Assembly (NCBI RefSeq): GCF_051903065.1
Contig: NZ_CP178438.1
Direction: 5' to 3' (one strand)
Length of the DNA: 64,000 nt
Origin: Escherichia coli
GTDB lineage: Bacteria; Pseudomonadota; Gammaproteobacteria; Enterobacterales; Enterobacteriaceae
Positions 47,266 through 47,292 of the stretch are shown piece after piece. Within the stretch, counting starts at the first letter, position 1; each line of letters begins with the position of its first letter. The notes under the pieces were generated by a model that searched no databases, was not told the DNA's origin, and saw only the letters and a list, made by a program, of their open reading frames with translations. The position numbers and the translations under genes were made by a program.

Positions 47266-47292
47266 AACCTGTTTGAATTGGTACGACAGGTT
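47266..47292. promoter_or_regulatory. Palindrome in the uxaB promoter (candidate ExuR/UxuR operator)
   Basis: aacctgt-N13-acaggtt inverted repeat, 28-54 bp upstream of the uxaB start codon. Confidence 0.3.

Follow-up and report, generated by a model that had tools for sequence, protein, structure and literature searches.

The interval 47266–47292 of the analyzed window (the whole stretch of DNA under study, 64 kb) is most probably the core of the uxaB promoter overlaid by two adjacent operators, here called boxes A and B, for ExuR, the hexuronate repressor of the GntR/FadR family. The perfect inverted repeat found in this interval is a by-product of the two boxes and no signal in itself. The evidence comes from matches to curated ExuR sites, the rarity of such matches, their conservation across genera, and their position relative to the published transcription start site (TSS) and -10 element, all of which were observed directly. 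uxaB belongs to the textbook genes of the exu regulon: ExuR has been recognized as its regulator since the 1980s, and mapping of its promoter likewise dates back decades. That this gene has an ExuR operator region is known biology and an ordinary finding.

Locus and promoter of uxaB

The region 46800–47900 of the window is 100% identical to several complete Escherichia coli genomes, was found in 5417 of 5426 complete genomes, and is annotated in those E. coli genomes as uxaB (tagaturonate reductase) beside a diguanylate cyclase gene. Both mannitol-dehydrogenase domains are present in the UxaB open reading frame. The gene upstream of uxaB is dgcF, which lies on the same strand and ends at 47465, leaving an intergenic spacer of 226 bp. 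The proximal uxaB promoter is identical in K-12 MG1655, and position 1610680 of NC_000913.3 (uxaB start) corresponds to window position 47238. The following features define the gene and its promoter:

45787–47238, minus strand: uxaB, tagaturonate (altronate) reductase, 483 aa, GTG start at 47238 (based on the open reading frame, the MG1655 match, and domains)
47278 (range 47278–47282), minus strand: published uxaB transcription start, NC_000913.3 1610720 by coordinate offset
47288–47296, minus strand: extended -10 element TGcTAACCT, in which the TAACCT hexamer (47293–47288) follows TG (47296–47295) (based on PMC4447067 and conservation)

An experimentally validated TSS of uxaB has been placed at 1608744 in the old MG1655 coordinates (Peano et al. 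2015, PMC4447067 Table 1), and its -10 element has been given as CTAACCT (PMC4447067 Suppl. Table S3). To convert these coordinates, we used an offset of +1976 calibrated on lpp, which has a TSS at 1755407 (old), an ATG at 1757421 (NC_000913.3), and a 38-nt leader. The supplementary sequences of that study cover roughly “-20 to +1,” and the lpp example ends at -3; because they end only roughly at +1, the uxaB start was taken as 47278–47282. A TSS at 47278 lies 10 nt, not 7 nt, after the -10 hexamer, a gap that points to a small error in the assignment of the start site or of the hexamer. Across 76 unique promoters, conservation of the TG, TAA, and terminal T of the -10 element is 100%, which is beyond what the ExuR matrix (see below) demands. 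This pattern fits an extended -10 promoter.

A scan of 47150–47520 for consensus sigma-70 promoters and terminators found nothing; with its extended -10 and weak -35, the uxaB promoter falls outside the rules of the scan. We also considered a promoter made of a -35 element TTGATC (47329–47324) and a -10 element TATTAA (47306–47301). It was rejected because the TATTAA hexamer varies even among Escherichia and because the published -10 and TSS are located further downstream.

The inverted repeat and the ExuR boxes

The sequence of 47266–47292 is AACCTGTTTGAATTGGTACGACAGGTT, which can be written as AACCTGT-TTGAATTGGTACG-ACAGGTT, that is, two perfect 7-nt arms separated by a 13-nt spacer in which TTGGTAC (47278–47284) has an off-centre position. 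The initial annotation had described this repeat, its arms, and its TTGGTAC core correctly, as well as its location 28–54 bp upstream of the uxaB GTG (47238), and had proposed it as a candidate ExuR/UxuR operator. The centre of the repeat, 47279, is essentially the uxaB start site, and its arms are placed as follows:

47266–47272, no strand assigned: left arm AACCTGT, outer flank of ExuR box A, +7 to +13 of the uxaB transcript
47286–47292, no strand assigned: right arm ACAGGTT, right half-site of box B, overlapping the uxaB -10 hexamer, -14 to -8

Perfect 7-bp inverted repeats with a spacer of 0–20 nt occur 202 times in the window (3.2 per kb), and first-order Markov simulations gave approximately 95 per 64 kb. 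The expected number in a 226-bp intergenic region is about 0.3–0.7, and therefore the repeat is statistically unremarkable.

ExuR sites have been tabulated for 17 enterobacterial genomes (91 sites; Suvorova et al. 2015, PMC4494728 supplement), including two sites for E. coli b1521 (uxaB), ACAGGTTGTATGACTAATCAG and GGAAGTTGTCTGACATCTTTA. The gap between GT and AC is 3 nt in ExuR sites and 2 nt in UxuR sites (PMC4494728). A position weight matrix was derived from 51 unique 21-mers among the curated ExuR sites, with all uxaB sites excluded, and was used to scan both strands of the window. The training sites scored at least 12.1 bits, with a median of 23 bits. The top three of about 128,000 window positions (boxes D, C, and B in this order) were all located inside the 226-bp uxaB-dgcF spacer. 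Together with the curated proximal site, four boxes can be listed:

47252–47272, minus strand: box A, curated proximal ExuR site ACAGGTTGTATGACTAATCAG, centre 47262 (exact reverse-complement match to the b1521 site)
47274–47294, plus strand: box B, predicted ExuR-type operator TGAATTGGTACGACAGGTTAG, dyad centre 47284 (matrix match and ortholog conservation)
47415–47435, plus strand: box C, predicted distal ExuR-type box TAAAGTGGTAGAACACATTGC, centre at -147 from the TSS (matrix match)
47457–47477, minus strand: box D, curated distal ExuR site GGAAGTTGTCTGACATCTTTG, centre at -189 from the TSS (curated b1521 site)

Box B contains a core of GT (47281–47282), a 3-nt gap (ACG), and AC (47286–47287), and has the TKGT and ACMA half-sites typical of ExuR. 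Its score of 14.6–14.9 bits ranks third in the window and lies inside the range of the curated sites. Simulated sequence (5 Mb) yielded scores of at least 14.6 bits at a rate of 4.6e-6 per position, which corresponds to 0.001 per 226 bp and 0.3 per 64 kb. The box spans about -16 to +5, a stretch that includes both the start site and the -10 element. Box A, located at about +7 to +27 and abutting the ribosome-binding site, has a lower score (9.7–10.3 bits, rank 7 in the window; training minimum 12.1 bits). Of the two distal boxes, box C scores 16.9–17.1 bits (rank 2) and is 42 bp from box D, the best match in the window (17.2–17.7 bits). Box D overlaps the dgcF stop codon (47465–47467) and differs from the curated b1521 site GGAAGTTGTCTGACATCTTTA only at the outermost base (C here, T in K-12).

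The ExuR table of PMC4494728 contains boxes A and D for E. coli but not boxes B and C. Although box B outscores box A, the table has no entry for it under E. coli, C. koseri, or K. pneumoniae. A full-text literature search with the sequences of boxes A and B returned no relevant paper.

Comparison with the curated sites, which the initial annotation had suggested as a check, gave a mixed picture: the curated proximal site overlaps the flagged interval by 7 nt, and box B is absent from the list. The curated site shares only the left arm (47266–47272) with the repeat and runs toward the gene, not over the TTGGTAC core; the core and the right arm are contained in the matrix match at 47274–47294. 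Thus, the initial annotation had the right place and the right protein, but the recognition symmetry it drew did not hold: 21-mers in the registers of the palindrome (starts 47266 and 47269) scored -19 to -44 bits with the curated-site ExuR matrix, the dyad of box B is centred at 47284 instead of 47279, and the two arms are not conserved together.

Conservation of the boxes and identity of the regulator

To assess conservation, we analyzed 80 uxaB loci from about 18–20 enterobacterial genera, whose proteins are 84–99% identical. A match of at least 10 bits to box B was detected at -46/-47 from the start codon in 75 of the 80 loci, and 63 of the 80 reached at least 12.1 bits. The median score of box B over the 80 loci was 16.8 bits, and values of up to 25 bits were found in Kosakonia, Kluyvera, and Raoultella. 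The exceptions were Intestinirhabdus, with a box B score of just 5.8 bits, and two genera whose upstream region differs, Franconibacter and Siccibacter. Box A (at -24/-25) scored at least 8 bits in 58/80 loci, with a median of 9.1 bits, and its sequence is nearly invariant across genera; box B had the higher score of the two in 67 of the 80 loci. Other Escherichia and Citrobacter have a box comparable to box C at -187 to -209 from the start codon, whereas most other genera lack one.

Multiple alignment of the 76 unique promoters revealed two invariant stretches, ACCAAT (47282–47277) and GTATGAC. The ortholog consensus of box B, TAAATTGGTCTAATAACTTAT, agrees with the consensus of the ExuR matrix, TAAATTGGTATAACAACTTTT, at 17 of 21 positions, and the N3 spacing of box B is kept in all orthologs. 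The centres of boxes B and A are 22 bp apart in 58 promoters and 21 bp apart in another 19, which corresponds to two helical turns. On the other hand, the -10 element, not ExuR, accounts for part of the conservation of box B (TAA..T and the TG before it).

The conservation of the arms was examined in segments homologous to both of them in 77 orthologous uxaB promoters (window included). Only 4 of the 77 promoters had fully complementary arms (7/7), 9 had at least 6/7, and 47 had 1–3/7. In most genera, an upstream arm AAGTTAT is opposite YCAGGYT. Neither joint conservation of the arms nor compensating changes between them were seen in these 77 promoters; instead, each arm follows the conservation of its own box. 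In Escherichia, the half-site of box B reads AACCT instead of AAGTT; this AACCT, the AC of the box B core, and the GT beside box A make the arms of Escherichia complementary. Both arms resemble the semi-palindromic half-site AASTTGT and thus happen to be complementary by chance in Escherichia.

These data bear on whether the 7-N13-7 repeat itself might act, either in DNA or in RNA. An operator in which dimeric ExuR, UxuR, or another protein contacts the AACCTGT arms about 47279 would account for the perfect arms and for a centre within 1 nt of the published start site; the repeat is identical in K-12 MG1655, and the older literature may have proposed a dyad here. However, its registers have the strongly negative scores given above, the arms AAGTTAT and YCAGGYT of most genera are complementary at only 1–4 of 7 positions without compensation, each arm is fully explained by a separate GT-N3-AC box, and repeats of this size are expected by chance. 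Such an operator is largely refuted and highly improbable. A hairpin in the 5' leader of the uxaB mRNA that affects translation or stability has, in our view, almost no chance of being the correct reading. If the whole repeat were transcribed, a 7-bp stem would be present in both the minimum-free-energy and centroid structures, but the fold is no better than those of shuffled sequences (z = -0.62; 54 of 200 shuffles equal), covariation is absent over the 77 orthologs, and the start site at about 47278 lies between the arms, which leaves the upstream arm outside the RNA.

Two further explanations accept the conservation of box B and attribute it to something other than binding of an ExuR homodimer. 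Box B may be conserved solely as core promoter (-10, discriminator, and start), with ExuR acting through the curated boxes A and D alone. The curated list, which has only A and D, and the invariant TG, TAA, and T of the -10 element speak for this possibility, which we consider rather unlikely: the invariant ACCAAT at -4 to +2 and the GT-N3-AY spacing correspond to an ExuR half-site and to no promoter requirement, the ortholog consensus fits that of the ExuR matrix as described above, and the median score of box B is higher than that of box A. It is less probable still that box B is bound by another regulator of the FadR subfamily, by UxuR, or by an ExuR-UxuR heterodimer. The left half AATTGGT is common to the PdhR and LldR motifs, and heterodimer formation between ExuR and UxuR is reportedly mentioned in a title by Tutukina et al. 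from 2016. In addition, deletion of uxuR has been reported to derepress uxaB (PMC10016265), and UxuR or the heterodimer may take part at uxaB. On the other side, the gntP/uxuA spacer was the only region obtained in genomic SELEX when purified UxuR was used alone (PMC5934670), and UxuR sites have the form GT-N2-AC, which box B, with 3 nt between GT and AC, does not have. The suggestion of a UxuR-type site made in the initial annotation is thus not supported.

Specificity was further analyzed with small symmetric matrices for PdhR, DgoR, LldR, GlcC, and FadR, which are paralogous regulators of the FadR subfamily. Box B and its orthologs fell short of the training minimum of each of these five matrices (minima of 9–17 bits; median scores of -2 to 7 bits), whereas ExuR matrices, even when built from 10 random sites, scored box B inside their training range. 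ExuR is also the regulator known to repress uxaB, which is induced on glucuronate (PMC8612250; PMC10016265), and it leaves its operators upon hexuronate binding (PMC10294642).

Operator layout and other features of the spacer

From the position and conservation of the boxes, we infer that ExuR occupies box B, that boxes A and B may cooperate, and that binding would occlude the promoter. An ExuR dimer on box B would sterically deny RNA polymerase access to both the start site and the -10 element. A further dimer bound to box A, which lies on the same face of the helix 22 bp downstream in the 5' leader, would probably help, either by cooperative binding or as a downstream block. Binding of a hexuronate inducer would then release ExuR and relieve the block. 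In Escherichia, boxes C and D (centred at -147 and -189) could add looping.

This layout can be compared with known operators of the same pathway. Box B lies upstream of uxaB, over the published -10 and TSS, and has the same A/T-rich TKGT-N3-ACMA palindrome as the ExuR operators of the exu regulon (exuT, uxaCA, exuR, and uxaB; PMC4494728), which include the same gene, b1521. It resembles the ExuR site of uxaCA, AAATTGGTGTGATAACTTT, especially in the form found in other genera (TAAATTGGTCTAATAACTTAT). Boxes A and D are sites of the exu regulon table, whereas boxes B and C and the 7-N13-7 symmetry are not in it (PMC4494728). The UxuR operators (uxuAB/gntP, uxuR, and lgoR/lgoD) belong to a paralogous regulator of the same pathway and have a similar TTGGT half-site, but they differ from box B in their GT-N2-AC spacing. 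The ExuR biosensor promoters of Ni et al. (2021), as far as they are described in PMC10294642, carry operators between the -35 and -10 elements and downstream of the -10. According to this description, they are similar to boxes B and A of uxaB in having two operators that overlap or follow the core promoter, and their repression is tight and relieved by hexuronate. However, the biosensor promoters are engineered, whereas the natural uxaB promoter has an operator over the -10 element and start site as well as two more distal boxes.

The sole possible addition to what is known would be the boxes B and C, which are predicted from sequence and absent from the table of PMC4494728. It is conceivable, though doubtful, that box B, not box A, is the main and oldest ExuR operator, doubling as the -10 element, and that B and C have been missed in regulon reconstructions. 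If this is true, uxaB would have four ExuR boxes, with a proximal pair spaced 21–22 bp and, about 140 bp upstream, a distal pair spaced 42 bp, a layout capable of cooperative or looped repression. One widely used table lacks both box B, which is the best conserved and in most cases the top-scoring box, and the distal box C; adding them might bring small gains for ExuR motif models and the design of biosensors. The plausible-looking palindrome is not the recognition element here, and the operators are now placed relative to the -10 element and start site; beyond such annotation hygiene, the significance is small.

Another conserved element was observed upstream of the -10:

47311–47329, minus strand: nearly invariant 19-nt block TTGATCAAAACAGGGGTTC in the -35 region, -51 to -33 (based on 76 unique promoters)

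This block is more conserved than the -10 region and is not ExuR-like. It contains a palindrome, TTGATCAA (with GATC), and an FNR-like half-site, TTGAT. When the block was compared by eye with the CRP, FNR, and KdgR consensus sequences, just KdgR was moderately matched; the KdgR consensus AAATGAAACAnTGTTTCATTT (PMC5559549) agreed with the genus consensus at 13 of 20 positions and with the E. coli sequence at 11 of 20. An FNR ChIP-seq peak has been reported at the uxaB promoter with its centre at 1608750 in old coordinates, together with a sigma-S ChIP-seq peak (1608700–1608949, old) and ArcA peaks (PMC3688515, PMC4447067, PMC3798270 as joint source). The centre of the FNR peak maps to about 47284 of the window. 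A weak CRP-like site, CATGATCCGCTCCACA, was also recognized by eye at 47365–47380 on the minus strand (7 of 10 core positions; centre at about -94.5), and PMC3688515 describes overlapping CRP and FNR sites at uxaB.

The distal half of the spacer (47340–47480) has two strongly divergent alleles within E. coli, and strain SCPM-O-B-8794 has a distal spacer similar to that of E. whittamii with an insertion of about 20 bp. The two alleles are nearly the same over the proximal 100 bp, which include the promoter and boxes A and B. The divergent distal and near-identical proximal halves suggest recombination within the uxaB-dgcF spacer. Just 3' of dgcF, an inverted repeat of 11 nt (47386–47396 and 47402–47412; ATCGAGGAAAA and TTTTCCTGGAT) is 91% complementary and may be a terminator stem; no T-run is present, and the scan for terminators did not report it. 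The dgcF (yneF) open reading frame in the window (47465–48883) encodes 472 aa with a C-terminal GGDEF domain. The dgcF of K-12 MG1655 has just 315 aa and a TTG start, and looks N-terminally truncated.

Finally, CACSKA010000003.1, which is labelled Chryseobacterium sp. 18061, contains an enterobacterial uxaB whose product is 86% identical to E. coli UxaB. Its promoter is almost the same as that of Enterobacteriaceae bacterium RIT691, and this sequence is probably derived from a mislabelled or contaminated assembly.
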